From an uncultured Saprospiraceae bacterium (GTDB lineage Bacteria > Bacteroidota > Bacteroidia > Chitinophagales > Saprospiraceae): a stretch of 64,000 nt of DNA. The notes below the pieces were generated by a model that had not been told where the DNA came from, searched no databases, and saw only the letters and a program-made list of their open reading frames with translations. The translations under genes were made by a program, and so were the position numbers. The stretch covers positions 10,762 through 74,761 of the forward strand of contig CALDYY010000016.1 in the NCBI GenBank assembly GCA_937944245.1, written 5' to 3'. Shown one piece after another: positions 43,256-50,728 of this stretch. How positions within the stretch are numbered: position 1 is the stretch's first letter; the number at the start of each line of letters is the position of its first letter.

Positions 43256-43502
43256 TTTTTGCTGCGATATTGATTGAACAGCAAAAATGCAGTTTATTTT
43301 TTTGTTGAACCAACACAAGATAATTTAATAGGGAATTACTAACCTATTAAGACTTTTCAGATTTATCTTTCTTGGAATCTGTTTTTTTGGAAAAAATATT
43401 TATTGTGGCATTTTCTTTTCCGCTTTTACCTTCTTTTTTATAAGAGGACAAAGGCTTAACTTTGACTTTAGACTTATCAGCGGTTGCTTTTTTATGATTC
43501 TT

Positions 43503-43658
43503 AGAGCTTGTTCAAAAATTTTCTTTAAGTGAAAATCAATAGTTTGTGGTTCTGACAATAGGAAGGCGAGGGAATTTAGCGGGCTAAATGACTAAGCCTT
43601 ACTGAAGTCAGATTCATAAAATATTGATTTTCAGTAATTAAAAATTTAAACATGCTCT
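43503..43658. repeat. long imperfect inverted repeat (arms ~40 nt) around a ~80-nt core
   Basis: Outer AGAGC/GCTCT (43503-43507 / 43654-43658) and a perfect inner 12-mer TGAAAATCAATA/TATTGATTTTCA (43530-43541 / 43622-43633). Partially paired A/T-rich stretches lie between them. Confidence 0.6.
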
Positions 43659-43714
43659 TACTTCCTTTATCCTTGCTCATAGCCAATCATTTTATCGTGA
43701 AATCATTTTCATTA

Positions 43715-43781
43715 GGTAAATGATGGCTCGTTTAAAAATGGAATATGTTATATAATTTCTGTAATAAGTTATATAATTCAC
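43715..43781 (-). promoter_or_regulatory. stress-island promoter module, copy C (degenerate -7 element)
   Basis: Minus strand reads GTGAATTATATAACTTATTACAGAAATTATATAACA. It has two TATAAC half-sites 21 bp apart. A 34-codon ORF starts 35 nt downstream. Confidence 0.45.
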
Positions 43782-43802
43782 GGATGATTCAATTATTCAT
43801 TT

Positions 43803-44168
43803 CTATTCAAATCCACTTTTTATCACAGTCGCAATCATTTTAAAACGTCCATTGGCTTTTATGTGATTGGCTGTATGGGCAGGTATTACAATGGATTGAC
43901 CCGTAACAAGCAAATTGGACTTACCGCTAATAACAATTTCGGCGCTACCCTCAATAATTTGTGCAAAAGTGTCAAAGGGTGTTGTTTGCTCTATTAATCC
44001 TTCCCCACTATCAAAAGACATTACACTTACGTTACCTGTTGATTTTTTTAGAATTGTTTTTATAACTACAGCATTAGGAATATATTCTATAATTTCAACG
44101 GTGATATATACTTTAGCTTTCTCTACTTCGACTGAATCCATAATTAAATAATTGGTTGAAATTTTCAT
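43803..44168 (-). CDS. cupin-domain protein
   Basis: About 120 aa of beta-rich sequence, GEGLIEQTTPFDTFAQIIEGSAEIVISG...IVIPAHTANHIKA, typical of small cupins. Confidence 0.65.
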   Translation of the reverse strand: MKISTNYLIMDSVEVEKAKVYITVEIIEYIPNAVVIKTILKKSTGNVSVMSFDSGEGLIEQTTPFDTFAQIIEGSAEIVISGKSNLLVTGQSIVIPAHTANHIKANGRFKMIATVIKSGFE

Positions 44169-44241
44169 GTGGTACTACTTACTCGTGAAGAGAAGCGATT
44201 GTATAACTCGCTTCTCCTTAGTTAGTTTTTATCGTTTCCTA

Positions 44242-44385
44242 CTAAGCATCCTGCAAGTTTTCCTTAGCTGCTGTTACCTCTGTTCGAGCATCTTCTACTT
44301 TCTGATTAGGCGATTTACAACCTGTAAAAATTGTGCCTGCAAAGAACGTTGTTGCTATGGCTAAAATAAAAAATACTTTTTTCAT
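44242..44385 (-). CDS. 47-aa lipoprotein (not in the ORF track)
   Basis: MKKVFFILAIATTFFAGTIFTGCKSPNQKVEDARTEVTAAKENLQDA has a signal peptide plus lipobox. I translated it by hand. Confidence 0.5.
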   Translation of the reverse strand: MKKVFFILAIATTFFAGTIFTGCKSPNQKVEDARTEVTAAKENLQDA

Positions 44386-44479
44386 TATAAATCAATTTAA
44401 AATATTAAATACCTTTATAAAAATTAAAAGAGTACCACTTCCAATTTTTTTTGGAAGCGATACTTTTATGAGTAGCCTA

Positions 44480-44668
44480 CTAAAGCTCACCCATGATGTC
44501 GCGTAATTCTTTCTCTGTTTTACCAAGTTTTATTTGGAGTTTACCAAGCATCTCGTCTTTCTTACCTTCTTCAAACATCAAATCGTTATCGGTTAACTCT
44601 GCAAACATTTGCTTAAGTTTTCCTTTTTGTTCGTTCCAGTTCCCTTTTAATTCAGTCTTGTTTATCAT
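44480..44668 (-). CDS. CsbD-family general stress protein
   Basis: [42 protein letters not shown] is the classic CsbD pattern. Confidence 0.85.
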
Positions 44669-44704
44669 CTTTTTTAGTTATTTAATTATAAAATAATTTT
44701 TACA

Positions 44705-44770
44705 ATACAAAAGTGCTTATTTTATAATTCTCTTACCTTACACAACTCTTTGAATAAGTTATATCATTCC
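44705..44770 (-). promoter_or_regulatory. stress-island promoter module, copy A (upstream of csbD-like gene)
   Basis: Minus strand reads GGAATGATATAACTTATTCAAAGAGTTGTGTAAGG, then N20, then CACTTTTGTAT. The ATG lies 37 nt downstream. Confidence 0.55.
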
Positions 44771-44892
44771 TACATATCATCTTTTTGATTATGAATTATA
44801 AGTGGTGAATTATAGATGGTAGGTTAGTTATTTCATGGTGAATGAGCTAAAAGAAAGGTATGTTGTACTGCTCATTTTAAAAAGTAGAATCA

Positions 44893-45453
44893 TTAAATAT
44901 CCTCTAGGTTCTTTCTTCTTTTTCGGTTTAACTGTTTATAAAAAGAAGGAGCAAGCCCTGTAATTTTCTTGAATTGGTTGGATAGGTGTGCGACGCTACT
45001 GTAATCTAACCGATATGAAATTTCTGTAAGCGTAAGCTCGTCATATAACAAGTATTCCTTTACTTTTTCAATCTTATGTAAAATAATAAATTGTTGTATA
45101 GTAATGCCTTTTACTTCGGAGAAGATACCAGATAGGTATGTATAATCGTAATCCAATTTTTCACTAATGTAATCAGAATAATTTACTCTTGGAAATTCAT
45201 CAGCATAATGAATCATTTCTATAATTACATTCTTTATTTTTTCAATCAGAATACTTTTTTTATCATCCATTAATTCTAATCCAGATTTCAATAAATTTCT
45301 TCCGAGTTGTTCACGTTGTGCTTCTGTTATATCTTCCAGAACATCAACCATTCCTAAATCTAAGACGATATAGTTCAATCCAAGTTTTTTCAATTCCTCT
45401 TTTACCATCATTTTACAACGCAAACTGACCATGTATTTGATGTAGAGTCTCAT
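44893..45453 (-). CDS. AraC-family transcriptional regulator (short, Bacteroidota type)
   Basis: C-terminal dual HTH: YISEKLDYDYTYLSGIFSEVKGITIQQF...EISYRLDYSSVAHLSNQFKKITGLAPSFY. Confidence 0.85.
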   Translation of the reverse strand: MRLYIKYMVSLRCKMMVKEELKKLGLNYIVLDLGMVDVLEDITEAQREQLGRNLLKSGLELMDDKKSILIEKIKNVIIEMIHYADEFPRVNYSDYISEKLDYDYTYLSGIFSEVKGITIQQFIILHKIEKVKEYLLYDELTLTEISYRLDYSSVAHLSNQFKKITGLAPSFYKQLNRKRRKNLEDI

Positions 45454-45750
45454 TGTGTTACATTTTTTATAGTTTGTCTTTAGCTTATAGACTAATATTT
45501 TTTAAGTGTCCACTGTATTATTAGTTTTATGAAAATGCCTTTTATTAATATTTGCAAGGTATCCTTTTTTATAGAAAGTAAATAAAAGAGGAATCGCTGT
45601 ATTGAGGTTAATGCTAATAATTTTTAGAGAAGAGACAAATAGGATATGATACTTAAAATAAAGATATAAGAATTAACAGACTTACATTAAAACTAGATTG
45701 AACTTTACTTTTTTGAACAGTTTTTTTCAATGTTAAACGAATGTCTAATT

Positions 45751-45782
45751 ACACAAAACCTACCAAAAGGTAGGTTTTGTGT
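45751..45782 (-). terminator. terminator of the beta-barrel gene 45799-46395
   Basis: ACACAAAACCTACC-AAAA-GGTAGGTTTTGTGT, a perfect 14-bp stem. Confidence 0.6.
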
Positions 45783-45798
45783 GAAAGAAATTTTAACA

Positions 45799-46395
45799 CT
45801 AGAACTTATAACCTAAAGAGACCTGACCAACTGCATTTTTGCCGTCACCTAGTAATATTTGAGCATTGTCCTTAGTTACGTCTATGAAGCCTTGAATATA
45901 TCGAACTCCAACCAATAATTTATTGAAGTTATAACTTAGCCCAGCCGTGAGACCTGCATCGAATTTTTTGAAAGCATCAACAATAATAGCATTATTACCG
46001 AACACCTTATAATCTGATGTAGATAATAAATAGGATGCAAAAGGACCTACCTGCAAATCAAACGCATCTAACTTAAAAGCCACTGGCAGCAATAAGTCCA
46101 CATAACTCATATTCAGTGTTTTACGCTCGTTGAGCAGCTTGAAAGCAGCACCTTTGAGTGAATAACTCAATTCAGGTTGTACCGACATAAAATCAGTTAT
46201 AACAGGTACATCTGCAAAAACACCCGCATGAAAACCGAATCGCTCACTTTTATCAGGCGACCTTTCAAAAGAGATATTACTTGCATTTAATCCACCTCGT
46301 ACTCCAACACCAACTTGAGCTAGTGAGATAGTAGTAACTAGTGTCAAAACTCCATAAACCATTGCTATCCTGATAAGTACATATCTGTTTTTCAT
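45799..46395 (-). CDS. small outer-membrane beta-barrel (porin-family) protein
   Basis: Signal peptide, alternating amphipathic strands, and C-terminal SLGYKF. Confidence 0.75.
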   Translation of the reverse strand: MKNRYVLIRIAMVYGVLTLVTTISLAQVGVGVRGGLNASNISFERSPDKSERFGFHAGVFADVPVITDFMSVQPELSYSLKGAAFKLLNERKTLNMSYVDLLLPVAFKLDAFDLQVGPFASYLLSTSDYKVFGNNAIIVDAFKKFDAGLTAGLSYNFNKLLVGVRYIQGFIDVTKDNAQILLGDGKNAVGQVSLGYKF

Positions 46396-46421
46396 AAAAT
46401 GAATTTAGCTTAATAGAAAAG

Positions 46422-46449
46422 CTAATGCCAAATGATTATTCGGCATTAG
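46422..46449 (-). terminator. terminator of the OmpA-family gene
   Basis: CTAATGCC-12 nt-GGCATTAG, followed on the minus strand by CTTTTCTATT. Confidence 0.5.
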
Positions 46450-46541
46450 TTAAATAATATTTAAATATTTATTGGTATGTTTTCTCATCGAATATAAAAA
46501 CCAAGAATAGTTAAAAGATGGTTGATTTAAGCAAGTCTATA

Positions 46542-47246
46542 CTATTGCCCAACTTCTTTTCTCACTTCTGATTTCATTTTCTCACTTGCGTAAATAGCAA
46601 TTTCTACTCTACGATTTTGCGCTCGATTTTCTTCCGTATCGTTAGGGAATGCTGGCTGCTCTTCGCCCTCTCCTTTAATTCTAAGACGATTACTAGCAAC
46701 TCCTAATGATGCTAGATAATTAGATACTGCTGCCGCCCTATTTTCTGACAAGGTTTGATTAAAGGAATTAGAGCCAACATTGTCCGTATGACCCACAATA
46801 AGCAAGTCGGTATCTGGATATTCTAGCAGCGTTTTCGCAAAATTCCTAAGGGCTATTTTATTGGTTTCCTTTAACGTTGCTTTGCCAAAGTCAAACAATA
46901 ATTGGCTGTTGAAGGTCAACTTGATTCCCTCGCCAACTCGTTCTACTGTCGCTGTGTTTCCCAGACTTTCTTCCAGTTCCTTCGCTTGCTTATCCATTTT
47001 ATTTCCAATAATAACGCCAATAGCGCCACCTGCTGTTGCTCCTATAATAGCACCCAGTGCAGTATTCTTGCTTTTATTACCGATAATGCCACCAATTACA
47101 GCACCAGAAGAGGCACCAACTATGGCACCTTTCTCTTTTTTGTTCATACTGGATTTATCTGTTGTATCGGTCTGAGCCTTTTGGGCGTTCTTACATCCAA
47201 CCAATAAAGTAGCTAGTATCACTAAAGAAAAGAGTATTTTTTTCAT
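46542..47246 (-). CDS. OmpA-family lipoprotein with glycine-zipper segment
   Basis: Lipobox LLVGC, a GAIVGASSGAVIGGIIG zipper, and OmpA_C motifs VGHTDNVGS..NQTLSENRAAAV..NRRVEI. Confidence 0.88.
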   Translation of the reverse strand: MKKILFSLVILATLLVGCKNAQKAQTDTTDKSSMNKKEKGAIVGASSGAVIGGIIGNKSKNTALGAIIGATAGGAIGVIIGNKMDKQAKELEESLGNTATVERVGEGIKLTFNSQLLFDFGKATLKETNKIALRNFAKTLLEYPDTDLLIVGHTDNVGSNSFNQTLSENRAAAVSNYLASLGVASNRLRIKGEGEEQPAFPNDTEENRAQNRRVEIAIYASEKMKSEVRKEVGQ

Positions 47247-47336
47247 AATTATTTTACTTTAGTATTATTCTAAAACTAAATACGATTGCTGGAATATATT
47301 CCCCATGAAATTATTGCAAAGTTAAACATATTTAGT

Positions 47337-47522
47337 TTATATTTTGATGTCCATTAATTCATTTAGAAGTCCAAAAGCACGTAGTAGCCAAAATATAACA
47401 GCTATGATAACCACTACATTAAGAATATTTTTGATTTTGCGATCCATTGGTATATAAGTGTTTACAAGCCAAAGCAGTACACCTACTACAACTAGAGTAA
47501 TTAAAACATTTACTAAAGGCAT
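47337..47522 (-). CDS. small two-TM membrane protein (Thivi_2564-like)
   Basis: MPLVNVLITLVVVGVLLWLVNTYIPMD.KIKNILNVVVIIAVIFWLL resembles that small-protein family as I recall it. Confidence 0.55.
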   Translation of the reverse strand: MPLVNVLITLVVVGVLLWLVNTYIPMDRKIKNILNVVVIIAVIFWLLRAFGLLNELMDIKI

Positions 47523-47625
47523 AATAAAAAATTTGAAGTGATGAAAATTAGATTAATATGTTATTGTTCTTTATTTTCAATGGTATCTTTTCAATACTCA
47601 AGCAAGGTCTTTTTATAAAGGAAAG

Positions 47626-48048
47626 CTATAATTTTTCCTTTTCTCCGAGTCGAGGTGTTTTCTTACCGAAGAGTTTTCTAAATAGAAAAGCACCAATTGA
47701 TTTTATACCCCCTGCATTTTTTGAAACAAGGCTTATTACGACTATTTCTAGTAGCGTTCCGAATAATTGCTTTAATGGATTGCGTGTGTTACCCACAACC
47801 ACTTTCTTGGAAACATAGCCCATGGCAAGTCCTATGGTTACGTCCAAAAGATTTCCTTTGATACTAGGGGTTGTTACTAATTGATTGACCGTACTTTTAA
47901 TTAAGTTAATAGGTTTTAAACTCTGATATACAGACTTTAATTCTTGTTTAAATGCTTTTCCCTCCCTTGCTTGCTCCATTTCGAGAGAAGTAATTAATGC
48001 GTTTAATGCTACGGTAGAAGTTATTTTTTTCATGATTAAATTAGTCAA
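47626..48048 (-). CDS. hypothetical protein, third member of a YtxH / holin-like / X unit
   Basis: 140-codon ORF overlapping the upstream gene by 8 nt (or starting at 48033). It has a hydrophobic C-terminal half. Confidence 0.5.
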   Translation of the reverse strand: MTNLIMKKITSTVALNALITSLEMEQAREGKAFKQELKSVYQSLKPINLIKSTVNQLVTTPSIKGNLLDVTIGLAMGYVSKKVVVGNTRNPLKQLFGTLLEIVVISLVSKNAGGIKSIGAFLFRKLFGKKTPRLGEKEKL

Positions 48049-48382
48049 GGGCTTGAGTAATAATTGAATTGCTAATCCACCTTTTAATTGAATTGTGCAA
48101 TAAGAAATGTAAAATAGCTCCTATTATTCCATAAAACCCTGCAACACAAAAGAATCCGTAATAGGATTTACCAAGTAAGTCTCCAAGCCAAAGCGCTACG
48201 CCGACGTTAGCACTAACAAAAAAAATAGAAGCAAATAGAATTGCCAAACTGCGAGAAACAAGTGTTGCCACCACACTTGCTGTCTTATCCAATGCTTTGA
48301 GTTGAAGTAGCTTGTAGCTAACCTTTCCGTATGCTTTTGCACGCTCAAATAAAGGTTCTATAAACGATGTTTTGTCTTCCAT
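48041..48382 (-). CDS. holin-X-like (phage holin family, PF07332-type) membrane protein
   Basis: About 110 aa with two TM segments, ASVVATLVSRSLAILFASIFFV and GFFCVAGFYGIIGAILHFLL. This is the typical partner of YtxH genes. Confidence 0.55.
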   Translation of the reverse strand: MEDKTSFIEPLFERAKAYGKVSYKLLQLKALDKTASVVATLVSRSLAILFASIFFVSANVGVALWLGDLLGKSYYGFFCVAGFYGIIGAILHFLLHNSIKRWISNSIITQALD

Positions 48383-48438
48383 AGGTTTAGATTGTAATGC
48401 AATACAAGATGAACGAAATAAGTTTAATTTAAACTACA

Positions 48439-48464
48439 CCTATAAGGCTTTTAAGCCTTATAGG
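48439..48464 (-). terminator. terminator after the YtxH gene
   Basis: Perfect palindrome CCTATAAGGCTT-TT-AAGCCTTATAGG. Confidence 0.6.
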
Positions 48465-48547
48465 CAGGTAAATCAGACACTTAACAATATAAAAAACACA
48501 CTACCTTTGCGATGCAATTATTGAATTGTGCCGTACCAAACTTAAAT

Positions 48548-48835
48548 TCATGGGTTTTGACCCAATTCATTCTTTGCTTTCGTAACACCATCTTTTACAT
48601 CTTCTTTCCCTTTTTCATAAAAGTTTACAACTTCTTCTCTAGCTGTTTTCAGTCTTTCGTTCAGGCTATGTAAAAGGTCGTCAAAATTGCTTTTCAAATC
48701 ATCTAATGCGTCATTACTTCCTTTAGAAATTTTATGTCTAGTTTTTGAGCCTTTATCTGGGGCAAATAATATACCAAATAACACACCCATAGCTGCACCT
48801 GCTATTATACCTGTTACTATTTTTCCTGAATCCAT
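48548..48835 (-). CDS. YtxH-domain protein
   Basis: GIIAGAAMGVLFGILFAPDKGSKTR followed by a helical tail. Confidence 0.85.
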   Translation of the reverse strand: MDSGKIVTGIIAGAAMGVLFGILFAPDKGSKTRHKISKGSNDALDDLKSNFDDLLHSLNERLKTAREEVVNFYEKGKEDVKDGVTKAKNELGQNP

Positions 48836-48876
48836 AATTATTATTTTTTAATGAATTAATACTTTGATTTTATTAT

Positions 48877-49032
48877 TTATAATACTCTCTTGCCGCTAAT
48901 AACCCTAAATATTACAGCTATAATCGCAATAACAAGAAGAATATGGATAATACCGCCAGCGTTGTATCCAACAAATCCAACTGCCCAAGCAATAACTAGA
49001 ACTACTGCAATAATGTAAAGTAGATTACCCAT
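48877..49032 (-). CDS. lmo0937-family small membrane protein (51 aa, not in the ORF track)
   Basis: Hand translation gives MGNLLYIIAVVLVIAWAVGFVGYNAGGIIHILLVIAIIAVIFRVISGKRVL. It lies 41 nt upstream of the YtxH gene. Confidence 0.65.
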   Translation of the reverse strand: MGNLLYIIAVVLVIAWAVGFVGYNAGGIIHILLVIAIIAVIFRVISGKRVL

Positions 49033-49078
49033 GATGAATTGATTTTAGATGTAAATGAAATAATGAGTTTTAGAATTA

Positions 49079-49134
49079 GTGCAGTATATTATCGCTTTTT
49101 ATATCTTATTATAAATAATGAAAATATACTGCAC
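49079..49134 (-). terminator. hairpin after the beta-barrel gene 49152-49790
   Basis: 12-bp arms GTGCAGTATATT / AATATACTGCAC separated by 32 nt. The large loop makes terminator function uncertain. Confidence 0.4.
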
Positions 49135-49151
49135 AAGGTGTAAGAAGACAA

Positions 49152-49790
49152 TTAGAATTTATATCCTAATGTTCCTTGAATCCAAGTATTTTTATAACGA
49201 GGCGTTGTTGAAGTTCCATCTCCATTGTTTTCTTGAAGATCCCATGCAACTCTTGCACCAACTACAACTTTTCCTAAGTTAATATCAGCACCACCTATAA
49301 ACCCTAAGGTGTTTTTGCGAATATTATCATTGTCAAATTCTCGCTCTTGGTCAATCGTCGCTCCTGCACCTGTGAATTTATTTTTTTGCTTTAATAAGTA
49401 AGAAAATTGAGGACCCGCTACCAACGATAAAAAAGGTACTGGCTTTACCAACAACAAAAGGGGAACATCAACGTAAGTTGTTGTACGAGTCAGGTTGTAA
49501 CTATTGTTCAGTACATTACCTGTTGCCTTAAATCCCTTTTGAGAGAGTAATACTTCTGGTTGTACACCAATATACTTGCTAATAGGAACAGTCAAGAAAA
49601 TACCTCCCACTGCACCCAATTTACCATCTGCGTTAAATGCTTCTCCCTGTGAATCATAAACATTAGAATAATTAGCTCCTAACTTAGCTCCAAAGGAAAA
49701 TTGAGTTCGCATATCTGCATTGCTACTTTGTGCAGTCCCGTCGTAAATTAAAACGATGACTATTGCAAACATTAAAATTATTTTGTTCAT
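49152..49790 (-). CDS. small outer-membrane beta-barrel (porin-family) protein, same family by eye as 45799-46395
   Basis: Signal peptide MNKIILMFAIVIVLIYDGTAQ and C-terminal GTLGYKF. Start at the ATG at 49790, not the ORF-track 49898. Confidence 0.75.
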   Translation of the reverse strand: MNKIILMFAIVIVLIYDGTAQSSNADMRTQFSFGAKLGANYSNVYDSQGEAFNADGKLGAVGGIFLTVPISKYIGVQPEVLLSQKGFKATGNVLNNSYNLTRTTTYVDVPLLLLVKPVPFLSLVAGPQFSYLLKQKNKFTGAGATIDQEREFDNDNIRKNTLGFIGGADINLGKVVVGARVAWDLQENNGDGTSTTPRYKNTWIQGTLGYKF

Positions 49791-49831
49791 TTTCTTAACA
49801 CTTAATTTATACTGTATAATCAATTTTACGG

Positions 49832-49898
49832 ATACAAAAGTGAGGGTTTTTTCTATTAGAAGCGTTACATAACTTTTTGAATAAGTTACATCATTCAC
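49832..49898 (-). promoter_or_regulatory. stress-island promoter module, copy B (upstream of beta-barrel gene)
   Basis: Minus strand reads GTGAATGATGTAACTTATTCAAAAAGTTATGTAACG, then N20, then CACTTTTGTAT. The ATG lies 42 nt downstream. Confidence 0.55.
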
Positions 49899-50062
49899 AT
49901 ATATTATAGTTGAACTACGAATTATTAATTTCGGGTTAATTGCCTAATATGAATTAATCGTGGAGATAGATTGATATTTTGCTTATTGCTTGTTTTCAAA
50001 TCTTACAGCATAAGAGTTAGGACGATTTTTGGGAAAATCATTGTGCGTTAGGAATTTTTACG

Positions 50063-50728
50063 CTATTTTGGCACAAGATTGAGTAGTTCCATTCTCTTCT
50101 TTTGCTGCTTTTGTTGATAAAGTTCATCGTTCAAATGATCTAGGTATAAAATACCGTTCAAATGATCTACTTCATGTTGGAAAATAACTGCTGTGAATCC
50201 ATAAATGGTTTCTTTGTGGTGTGAACCATCTATTTTGTTGTATTCAATCACCACAAAATCATATCTTTCTACCACTGCACGATAATCGGGAATAGATAAA
50301 CAACCTTCGGTCGTTAACTTTGTAGAATCGCTGTACGCTACAATATCTATGTTGAGATAGCATTCAAATGGAAAGGCTTCTTTGTCAAAACGTTGCACCC
50401 ATATAATTTTTCTTGGTATGCCCACTTGTGGTGCAGCAATACCTACACCAAGTGAATTGGGATGGGTAACGGTTTTGTAAAGCCGAGCTATAAAATGGTT
50501 CAGCACTATATCTTGCGTGTCTGGTTTTATGAGCATTGACTTTGTGCGTAAAAAAACAGAATCTACGTAATTGGTGATTTTTAGTACCCGCATTTCTTTA
50601 CTGGTATCCGCTTCTATGATAGTATTCACTTCTGTGGGCGTAAAGGGCTTATTTTCAAATTTTTGTGCATTTAATAATTGATAGAAACCAATACATAGGG
50701 AGATTATTAAAAAGCGGTGATAAAGCAT
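50063..50728 (-). CDS. def: peptide deformylase with an N-terminal signal-peptide-like extension
   Basis: GIAAPQVG, EGCLSIP and HEVDHLNG motifs are all present. The N-terminus is MLYHRFLIISLCIGFYQLLNAQ. Confidence 0.85.
   Translation of the reverse strand: MLYHRFLIISLCIGFYQLLNAQKFENKPFTPTEVNTIIEADTSKEMRVLKITNYVDSVFLRTKSMLIKPDTQDIVLNHFIARLYKTVTHPNSLGVGIAAPQVGIPRKIIWVQRFDKEAFPFECYLNIDIVAYSDSTKLTTEGCLSIPDYRAVVERYDFVVIEYNKIDGSHHKETIYGFTAVIFQHEVDHLNGILYLDHLNDELYQQKQQKKRMELLNLVPK

Follow-up and report, generated by a model that had tools for sequence, protein, structure and literature searches.

Bacteroidota, which include gut Bacteroides as well as marine and soil Flavobacteriia and Cytophagia, employ an unusual housekeeping sigma factor, and how they coordinate general stress protection is poorly understood. 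A locus in an uncultured Saprospiraceae bacterium raises this question in concrete form. In a 64,000-nucleotide stretch of its DNA (GenBank assembly GCA_937944245.1, contig CALDYY010000016.1, positions 10,762 to 74,761 of the forward strand; hereafter “the window”), an island of envelope and stress-type genes contains three similar upstream regions together with a gene for an AraC-family protein of 186 amino acids (aa). What are these regions, and what binds them? The original prediction, made from this DNA, had read them as activator-dependent promoters. The data below support that reading, place the same promoter module throughout the phylum, and suggest that the adjacent 186-aa AraC-family regulator almost certainly binds to it.

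The three copies of the module, lettered as in the original prediction, are as follows.

43718 to 43786, minus strand: copy C, degenerate, with TATAA in both half-sites and a damaged -7 box.
44708 to 44776, minus strand: copy A, with TATAA at 44759-44763, TGTAA at 44738-44742 and the -7 box CACTTTTG at 44708-44715.
49835 to 49903, minus strand: copy B, with the distal element TGTGAATGATGTAAC at 49885-49899, the proximal element AAGTTATGTAAC at 49864-49875 and the -7 box CACTTTTG at 49835-49842.

These are the only matches to the module in the window, where none would be expected by chance. Reading the stretch from 43400 to 50200 located the three minus-strand copies that had been quoted, with half-sites 21 bp apart, as well as the open reading frames (ORFs) described around them, including the AraC-family gene at 44893-45453. 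A degenerate 33-mer made from the three copies (GAATKATRTAACTTATT-N7-TTRTRTAAS) matched the window solely at 43747-43779, 44737-44769 and 49864-49896 with up to three mismatches, and matched none of 100 shuffles. The half-site pair TRTAAS-N15-TRTAAS, with starts 21 bp apart, occurred in the three copies only (0.11 expected). The identical element reported downstream of copies A and B, CACTTTTGTAT, is present exactly and just twice, at 44705-44715 and 49832-49842, in each case 32 nt downstream of TTATTCAAAR. A weight-matrix scan, which the original prediction had proposed as a check, was run on the window using a matrix built from 142 instances in other genomes. It returned copy B (57.8 bits), copy A (38.1 bits) and copy C (36.9 bits), nothing else scored 8 bits or more, and shuffles gave 0.04 matches.

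Copy B is a near-consensus module that precedes genes for an outer-membrane protein (OMP), a DUF5670 protein and a YtxH protein; 44 nt separate the G of its -7 box from the ATG of the beta-barrel OMP gene, which begins 41 nt beyond CACTTTTGTAT. In copy A, which lies 120 nt 3′ of the stop codon of the AraC gene, the corresponding distances to the ATG of a CsbD gene are 39 nt and 36 nt. Copy A departs from the consensus in having TAGGA in place of TGTGA and TATAA in its distal unit.

The consensus itself was defined from other genomes. Module copies near AraC orthologues of named relatives (Imperialibacter, Reichenbachiella, a Flammeovirgaceae genome and a Chitinophagales metagenome-assembled genome [MAG]) supplied a retrieval pattern with 19 fixed bases, TGNGA-N3-ATGTAA-N16-TGTAA-N26-TTTG, which was scanned over GTDB species genomes. 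It matched at least 144 times in at least 120 genome stretches, virtually all of them from Bacteroidota; by our arithmetic, at most about 26 chance matches to 19 fixed bases would be found in the whole collection, even if it were AT-rich. All further counts of matches, instances and motif loci refer to the matches listed, which are a sample of the taxonomic distribution. They include Bacteroidales, Marinilabiliales, Chitinophagales, Saprospiraceae, Cytophagales, Flavobacteriaceae and Lentimicrobium and, from outside the phylum, one Ignavibacteria MAG, one “FCB group” MAG and one MAG labelled Woesearchaeota. The module consensus is AAtGTGTGAATnATGTAAc-N15-TGTAAca-N21-nAnCTTTG, and the logo of 142 instances reads AAtG-TGTGAAT-n-ATGTAAc-T..Tt......AaTT-r-TGTAAca.tt ... 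(c/t)-A-n-C-TTTG. Positions that the pattern had left unconstrained were conserved too: within the -7 box, A59 was present in 97% and C61 in 76% of these instances, and AAT followed TGTG in about 90%. The repeated unit is 11 bp long, AATnRTGTAAC. Its distal copy carries an extra GTGTG immediately upstream, and the proximal unit shows just one well-conserved box.

The spacing between these elements was checked on 76 matches to the distal element that lay outside the selection made by the retrieval pattern. The next TRTAA was exactly 21 bp downstream in 56 of the 76 and at another offset in four. TTT[GA] followed in 37 of those 56 sites, after 26 nt in 28 cases and after 25 nt in nine, which compares with 26 nt from TGTAA to TTTG in the consensus, where 21 nt separate the end of the proximal unit from the -7 octamer. 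The claim that these are activator-dependent promoters is strengthened by the spacings holding in unselected sites and by the module preceding orthologous or analogous genes in other genomes. In several loci (L009:1683-1849, L026, L033 and L042), modules also occur as back-to-back pairs on opposite strands, with their distal ends about 40–150 bp apart, in front of divergent genes.

The -7 box of the Bacteroidota housekeeping sigma factor is TAnnTTTG and its -33 box is TTTG (PMC7366714). The nAnCTTTG box of the module agrees with this -7 box, including in its distance from the start codon. An ORF of at least 45 aa beginning with ATG lay within 130 nt of the module in 123 of 144 matches, with a modal distance of 30–39 nt between the G of TTTG and the ATG; among these matches, the motif is not scattered through non-promoter contexts, an outcome that would have spoken against the original prediction. 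If transcription starts a few bases behind the box, these distances agree with the 5′ untranslated regions (UTRs) of Bacteroides thetaiotaomicron, which have a mode of 23 nt and a median of 32 nt (PMC7366714). The consensus has no TTTG or TTG resembling a -33 box at 17–23 nt upstream of its -7 box; the proximal TGTAAC unit lies there instead, as had been noted for the window copies. Because this unit replaces the -33 box, we call the promoter activator-dependent: an activator site occupies the place of the upstream promoter element, and that element is missing, which is the class II layout. A transcription start about 6 nt after the G would put the two units near -39 and -60.

About 15–20% of module instances carry an inverted repeat, GTGAAAAT-N3-ATTCAC (in RNA, GUGAAAAU-N3-AUUCAC), directly behind the -7 box. 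Examples are found in L048, L098, L112 and L130:2700-2730, with weaker ones in the window at 43690-43712 and 44680-44704. Pairing survives A-U to G-C and G-U substitutions: of the cells, 91% are paired and six are changed on both sides, the latter a value reached in one of 500 shuffles. Situated at the predicted 5′ end of the transcript, the repeat might form a hairpin at the 5′ terminus of the mRNA or act as a second operator. When the whole window was scanned against Rfam at gathering thresholds, nothing matched, so neither the module nor its 5′ UTRs belong to a described RNA family. A scan of the window for sigma-70-type promoters found 29 where 33 were expected and was uninformative, as expected for this phylum.

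Which protein reads the module? Of the 47 ORF clusters that recurred in four or more motif loci, the AraC subfamily was the only transcription-factor family. The gene, 44–75% identical in its product to the window protein, was present in 22 of 120 motif loci of at most 8 kb each, an excess that we estimate at roughly 50- to 100-fold on the assumption of one to three copies per genome. Its position relative to the module says more than this number. A same-strand module stood immediately 3′ of 25 of the 35 AraC genes in these loci, and in 15 of the 25 it began exactly five bases before the end of the last codon, so that the TGA in GTGTGAAT doubles as the AraC stop codon. All four distinct AraC-selected loci of the named relatives likewise carry a module straight after the AraC stop, and further copies there precede three ice-binding-like genes, a CsbD gene, a Band_7 gene and a beta-barrel OMP gene.

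To control for bias, 80 metagenome loci (L131-L210) were chosen by the AraC protein alone; 73 AraC genes had enough downstream sequence. A module of at least 20 bits lay within 400 nt downstream of 40 of the 73, in the stop-codon register in 28, and weaker modules could be recognized by eye in another 10–14. The island's AraC-family protein, which the original prediction had put forward as a likely binder, thus remains the probable one, its gene being physically locked to the module. Relatives carry the module at orthologous promoters, so its absence there, another outcome that would have told against the prediction, was not observed. In the window, AraC stop and module are 120 nt apart. The overlap of the last AraC codons (…N-[MVL]-stop) with the presumed binding site in a fixed register can also be seen in L021, L053, L075, L126, L002 and L006.

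A second AraC paralogue (57–68% identical, with the C-terminus …IEE[IV]GN) was observed in L136, L180, L184, L186, L202 and L208, where it directly precedes genes for PAS sensor kinases with repeated ELAFQNEEK-type coiled coils. A PAS kinase was considered as a partner of the regulator and rejected: single-linkage clustering had placed it in 27 loci, and a direct search found it in only six of the 120 motif loci and six of the 80 AraC-selected loci, and not in the window.

The regulator is widespread and conserved. It has more than 8000 database relatives, the best 120 of which are 77–99% identical over the full 186 residues and come from Cytophagales (Imperialibacter, Fulvivirga, Reichenbachiella, Ekhidna and Catalinimonas), Chitinophagales and Saprospiraceae. 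Identity is about 80% across orders, and 474 clusters at the 50% identity level were found at E≤1e-30. Pfam assigns HTH_18 (E = 3.4e-15) and HTH_AraC (E = 1.4e-9), and the two helix-turn-helix motifs of the AraC/XylS family are present. Sequence searches of Pfam and the PDB detect the C-terminal AraC-type domain only; NCBIfam holds no specific model for the regulator, giving sub-threshold matches to the shared AraC domain only.

An AlphaFold2 model (mean predicted local distance difference test score 87.5, predicted template modelling [TM] score 0.77) shows a beta-alpha-beta-beta-alpha-beta domain at residues 1–61 (strands 2–6, 28–32 and 35–38 and helices 11–23 and 44–56 among its elements), a long linker helix at 64–83, and seven helices between 92 and 185. 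In Foldseek searches the C-terminal part resembled MarA, SoxS and AdpA domains with TM scores of about 0.7–0.8, its best structural match being of the MarA/SoxS type (1bl0, 1xs9, 7w5w). The N-terminal part gave weak matches to Atox1, CopZ and Atx1 (TM about 0.6–0.7 on the target, E 0.08–0.15). This predicted domain has the order of strands and helices that defines the HMA fold. It lacks the CxxC motif of HMA domains, a single invariant cysteine (Cys13, in SLRCK) being found there, and has no Pfam HMA match. As modelled, it is HMA-like in fold and, by its lack of CxxC, not an HMA member. We infer that it mediates dimerization and perhaps sensing.

What does the module control? A Pfam scan of the 123 first downstream ORFs assigned 13 to Ice_binding (DUF3494), 11 to OmpA, eight to CsbD (a family present in 19 of the 120 loci), six to DUF5670, five to YtxH, five to OMP_b-brl and four to OMP_b-brl_2, five to Cupin_2, four to DUF6600 and three to MlaE. 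Ice-binding-like secreted proteins (DUF3494, often with Big_5) are the commonest direct target; in Imperialibacter roseus (L002:14327-19230), three consecutive ice-binding-like genes have one module copy each. Unbiased clustering of ORFs from the 120 loci recovered the same families. It added MlaD, MlaF, an AI-2E transporter, Usp, DUF2383 and Thivi_2564-family proteins, a 740-aa glycosyltransferase with a GH130 neighbor, L,D-transpeptidases, a DnaJ/CbpA-like protein and a P-type ATPase, together with holin-X-like 113-aa and 128/135-aa proteins that are also present in the window island. The island thus appears to be a local sample of a recurring gene set. Judging by its family names, this set resembles the general stress regulons of other phyla; the shared content comprises CsbD, YtxH, lmo0937-family proteins, Usp, OmpA-like lipoproteins, L,D-transpeptidases and CbpA-like DnaJ. 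Because the same module precedes these recurring envelope and stress genes, the module and the AraC protein together look like a phylum-wide stress or stationary-phase regulon.

The island comprises the following features.

49152 to 49790, minus strand: OMP_b-brl_2 outer-membrane beta-barrel protein (Pfam), the first gene behind copy B, of a family that follows the module in other genomes.
48877 to 49032, minus strand: small membrane protein of the DUF5670/lmo0937 family, the second gene behind copy B and a direct module target elsewhere.
48548 to 48835, minus strand: YtxH-like protein, the third gene behind copy B, of a family that is a direct target elsewhere.
48041 to 48382, minus strand: holin-X-like protein of 113 aa, with no module of its own.
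47626 to 48033, minus strand: 135-aa protein, with no module of its own.
47337 to 47522, minus strand: Thivi_2564-family small membrane protein of 61 aa, with no module of its own.
46542 to 47246, minus strand: OmpA/glycine-zipper lipoprotein, with no module of its own.
45799 to 46395, minus strand: a second OMP_b-brl_2 beta-barrel OMP, with no module of its own.
44893 to 45453, minus strand: AraC-family regulator of 186 aa (HTH_18), the proposed binder of the module.
44480 to 44668, minus strand: CsbD-like protein (Pfam), behind copy A.
44242 to 44385, minus strand: lipoprotein ORF of 47 aa, truncated in comparison with the intact 157-aa coiled-coil lipoprotein that the relatives L129 and L130 have at this position.
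43803 to 44168, minus strand: small cupin protein of 121 aa, a weak Cupin_2 match.
43347 to 43680, minus strand: disrupted gene for a lysine-rich hydrophilic protein of 56–58 aa (5′ part 43653-43680, 3′ part 43347-43495).
43496 to 43652, no strand assigned: self-complementary insertion of 157 bp, resembling a miniature inverted-repeat transposable element (MITE), which splits the lysine-rich gene; it is outside the module, 66 nt downstream of copy C.

The cupin family of the island is present in 15 of the 120 motif loci and directly behind AraC in L005 and L006. Terminator-like hairpins follow the CsbD gene (44431-44464) and the OmpA gene.

Copy C had been presented as the promoter of a 34-codon ORF. 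That ORF proves to be the 5′ stump of the disrupted lysine-rich gene, and the unit appears to be decaying. In the close relatives L129 and L130, whose AraC proteins are 87% and 84% identical to that of the window, intact homologues of the gene (MSKDKGSKNNKKAPADKSK...) sit behind the equivalent module, which indicates that copy C originally served this gene. In an alignment with these relatives the -7 box of copy C reads CATCaTTTA as against CACCTTTG in L129, the damage consisting of a one-base insertion and a G-to-A change. Because its small gene is split and its -7 box is damaged, copy C is best seen as a relic. The 157-bp insertion is 71% self-complementary over 145 bp, and neither the window nor any of the retrieved loci contains it a second time. 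A near-identical contig of another sample (L001) breaks off within it, which is what an assembly-breaking repeat would cause. Together, the truncated 47-aa lipoprotein and the split gene behind copy C suggest local gene decay at this end of the island. In L129, the closest relative whose gene order differs, an IS3-type transposase pair (HTH_Tnp_1 and rve; L129:2088-3204) has inserted beside a beta-barrel OMP gene that is truncated, immediately upstream of the AraC gene.

In the window, a 345-nt non-coding stretch (45454-45798) precedes the AraC gene and contains no module. It holds a strong hairpin, CACAAAACCTACC…GGTAGGTTTTGTG, behind the preceding OMP gene and, some 100 nt ahead of the AraC ATG, a sequence that may be a -7-like box, TACCTTGC. 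The ATGTAAC that had been pointed out 3 nt before this ATG is indeed present. As a meaningful half-site it does not stand, since the window contains nine such sequences and it is absent before orthologous AraC genes. Autoregulation was accordingly considered and rejected, modules too being rare upstream of AraC genes.

We propose the following mechanism. Each copy would act as an activator-dependent promoter of the Bacteroidota housekeeping sigma factor. The AraC-family protein would bind the two units, 21 bp or two helical turns apart, as a dimer joined through the small ferredoxin-like domain at its N-terminus, with both helix-turn-helix motifs of each monomer in use. The proximal monomer would substitute for the missing -33 contact and recruit RNA polymerase, which is class II activation. 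In the window, copy B would drive the OMP-DUF5670-YtxH genes and copy A the CsbD gene, and copy C would formerly have driven the small hydrophilic protein; across the phylum, the module would drive the recurring genes of envelope and general-stress type. An AraC-activated, housekeeping-sigma promoter with a phylum-wide target set is the best explanation of these data, and we consider it a probable one.

Several observations weigh against this explanation. At the strict threshold, 33 of the 73 AraC genes lacked a strong downstream module, and a module lay upstream of just six of 70 AraC genes in the AraC-selected loci. Within the island, the five middle genes (45799 to 48382) have no matrix match of 8 bits or more upstream, and members of their families recur in motif loci elsewhere. 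No AraC gene was present within 8 kb in 98 of the 120 motif loci; this is expected of a regulon, yet it is no proof of the binder. The evidence that assigns the AraC-family protein to the site is the linkage of gene and site, and the label “stress regulon” comes from family names (CsbD, YtxH, Usp) as opposed to expression. Contact through both motifs by the proximal monomer is conjecture, given one conserved proximal box. What the data show is the module with its geometry and distribution, its place before genes, the families of those genes and its linkage to the AraC gene; binding, activation in preference to repression, the start site and dimerization are what we infer.

The same distribution leaves room for an unlinked regulator, such as a response regulator of the LytTR type, that binds the module while the AraC gene is merely a frequent neighbor. 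Most module copies are not beside an AraC gene, Bacteroidota have many LytTR regulators, L006 has a His_kinase/LytTR pair 8 kb away from its AraC gene, and GTTACA, the half-site as read on the opposite strand, bears a loose resemblance to LytTR sites. However, a tblastn search with a Bacteroidota LytTR query, which covers BLAST-visible relatives, found a homologue in one of the 120 motif loci as against the AraC gene in 22, and no other transcription-factor family appeared among the recurrent ORF clusters. The AraC stop codon embedded in the module in fixed register at 28 of 73 independent loci is also hard to explain by neighborhood alone. LytTR, which had been offered as an equal alternative, therefore loses that standing, and we consider an unlinked binder unlikely. 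Even with the AraC-family protein as the binder, it might be a repressor or dual regulator that occludes a constitutive -7-box promoter until stress relieves it. Some AraC-family proteins do repress, the proximal unit overlaps the place of the -33 contact of RNA polymerase, and the inverted repeat found at the predicted start site in about 15–20% of instances is a possible second operator. Yet these promoters, having no -33 box, should be weak unaided, and the distance from proximal unit to -7 box is fixed within 1 nt across the phylum, which is typical of activators that touch polymerase and needless for occlusion; we regard repression as distinctly unlikely.

Two further explanations concern the DNA rather than its binder. 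The TGTAAC boxes might be the -35 and -10 elements of an extracytoplasmic function (ECF)-type sigma factor, with the TTTG box falling in the 5′ UTR: TGTAAC resembles the AAC-type -35 elements of ECF promoters, and the 16-nt gap between the boxes is within the range of ECF spacers. There is also precedent in B. thetaiotaomicron for a non-canonical stress promoter, PM2 (Ryan et al. 2020, PMC7366714), that has been attributed to ECF sigmas (PMC12596196). PM2, however, is a near-palindromic promoter of low expression with -10 and -30 elements, and with this other layout it was also rejected as a prior description of the module. Furthermore, -35 and -10 elements are read by different sigma domains and are not copies of each other, whereas here one 11-bp unit is repeated; nAnCTTTG, with its unconstrained A59 so highly conserved, matches the housekeeping -7 box at a fixed distance, start-codon distances fit a start site just behind it, and no sigma factor gene was among the recurrent ORF clusters. 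An ECF promoter is thus very improbable. Finally, three similar 67-nt stretches within 6 kb, with a MITE-like insertion 66 nt downstream of copy C, could suggest fragments of a dispersed repeat or mobile element without a regulatory role. But the similarity ends at the edges of the module, the flanks being unrelated and the spacers varying among copies and genomes; the copies point at a nearby start codon in fixed orientation and at fixed distance; the module is conserved from Cytophagales to Bacteroidales before the same gene families; and the MITE-like element is unrelated to it in sequence. The dispersed-repeat explanation is already effectively refuted.

The mechanism favored here, activation by the AraC-family protein, would be a member of a well-known kind by analogy, an AraC/XylS-type class II activator on tandem repeats. 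AraC at araBAD I1-I2, XylS at Pm and RhaS/RhaR at rhaBAD/rhaSR also bind direct repeats 21 bp apart, and the layout near -39 and -60 is that of AraC I1-I2, XylS at Pm and RhaS. In these class II activators, as in the module, the promoter-proximal half-site overlaps the upstream promoter element; they likewise have a C-terminal double helix-turn-helix with a separate N-terminal domain, and a regulator gene beside the target promoter. Unlike them, the regulator described here has an N-terminal domain of about 60 residues that is ferredoxin/HMA-like, not of the sugar-binding cupin/jelly-roll type. Its predicted site lies at a -7/-33-type Bacteroidota promoter and begins inside the regulator's own stop codon in many genomes, and its presumed targets encode envelope and stress proteins, not a catabolic operon. 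MarA, SoxS and Rob share with it the best structural match of the DNA-binding domain and, as predicted for the module, a multi-gene stress regulon with class II promoters; MarA and SoxS, in contrast, occupy a single asymmetric 20-bp box as monomers that lack a further domain, where here there are two units and an N-terminal domain. LytTR regulators (AgrA, ComE and AlgR) also use direct repeats of 21-bp period upstream of activated promoters; apart from the scarcity of LytTR genes at motif loci (1/120), the linked regulator differs from them in having no receiver domain.

In gene content, the module's targets overlap with the sigma-B regulons of Bacillus and Listeria, the sigma-S regulon of Escherichia coli and the EcfG regulons of Alphaproteobacteria. 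In contrast to these, control would be exerted through a transcription factor and the housekeeping sigma, with no dedicated sigma factor. Like PM2, the module is a variant promoter of Bacteroidota that goes with genes of stationary-phase and stress type; unlike PM2, it retains a canonical -7 box and adds tandem direct repeats upstream.

The original prediction knew of no described regulon with this motif. Full-text literature searches, which reached few subscription journals, likewise found no description of the motif, of the AraC subfamily or of a general stress regulator in Bacteroidota; one apparent match, PMC3914696, was rejected, having matched “arachidonic” only. Of interest here are the breadth of the module across the phylum, the extreme conservation of the regulator and the unusual fusion of its stop codon with the presumed binding site. 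The 65-nt site can be recognized by eye, and the module allows regulon members to be predicted in any Bacteroidota genome; the candidate targets are CsbD, YtxH, lmo0937-family, OmpA-like, beta-barrel OMP, Usp, Mla, L,D-transpeptidase and ice-binding-like genes. Possible uses include stress-responsive reporters and the choice of a gene to delete in Flavobacterium johnsoniae or B. thetaiotaomicron.

To our knowledge, Bacteroidota have no RpoS, sigma-B or EcfG-type system, and we know of no general stress regulator described for them. We speculate that most Bacteroidota share a general stress or stationary-phase response of which the AraC protein and its module form the master switch, a tentative reading that we hold to be a real possibility on the doubtful side of even. 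With the same reserve, the switch would be a transcription factor acting with the housekeeping sigma, not an alternative sigma factor, and the invariant Cys13 of the HMA-like domain could be its sensor. The pair would also illustrate clearly how class II activation works at a promoter of the -7/-33 type, and it may be the missing general stress switch of Bacteroidota.

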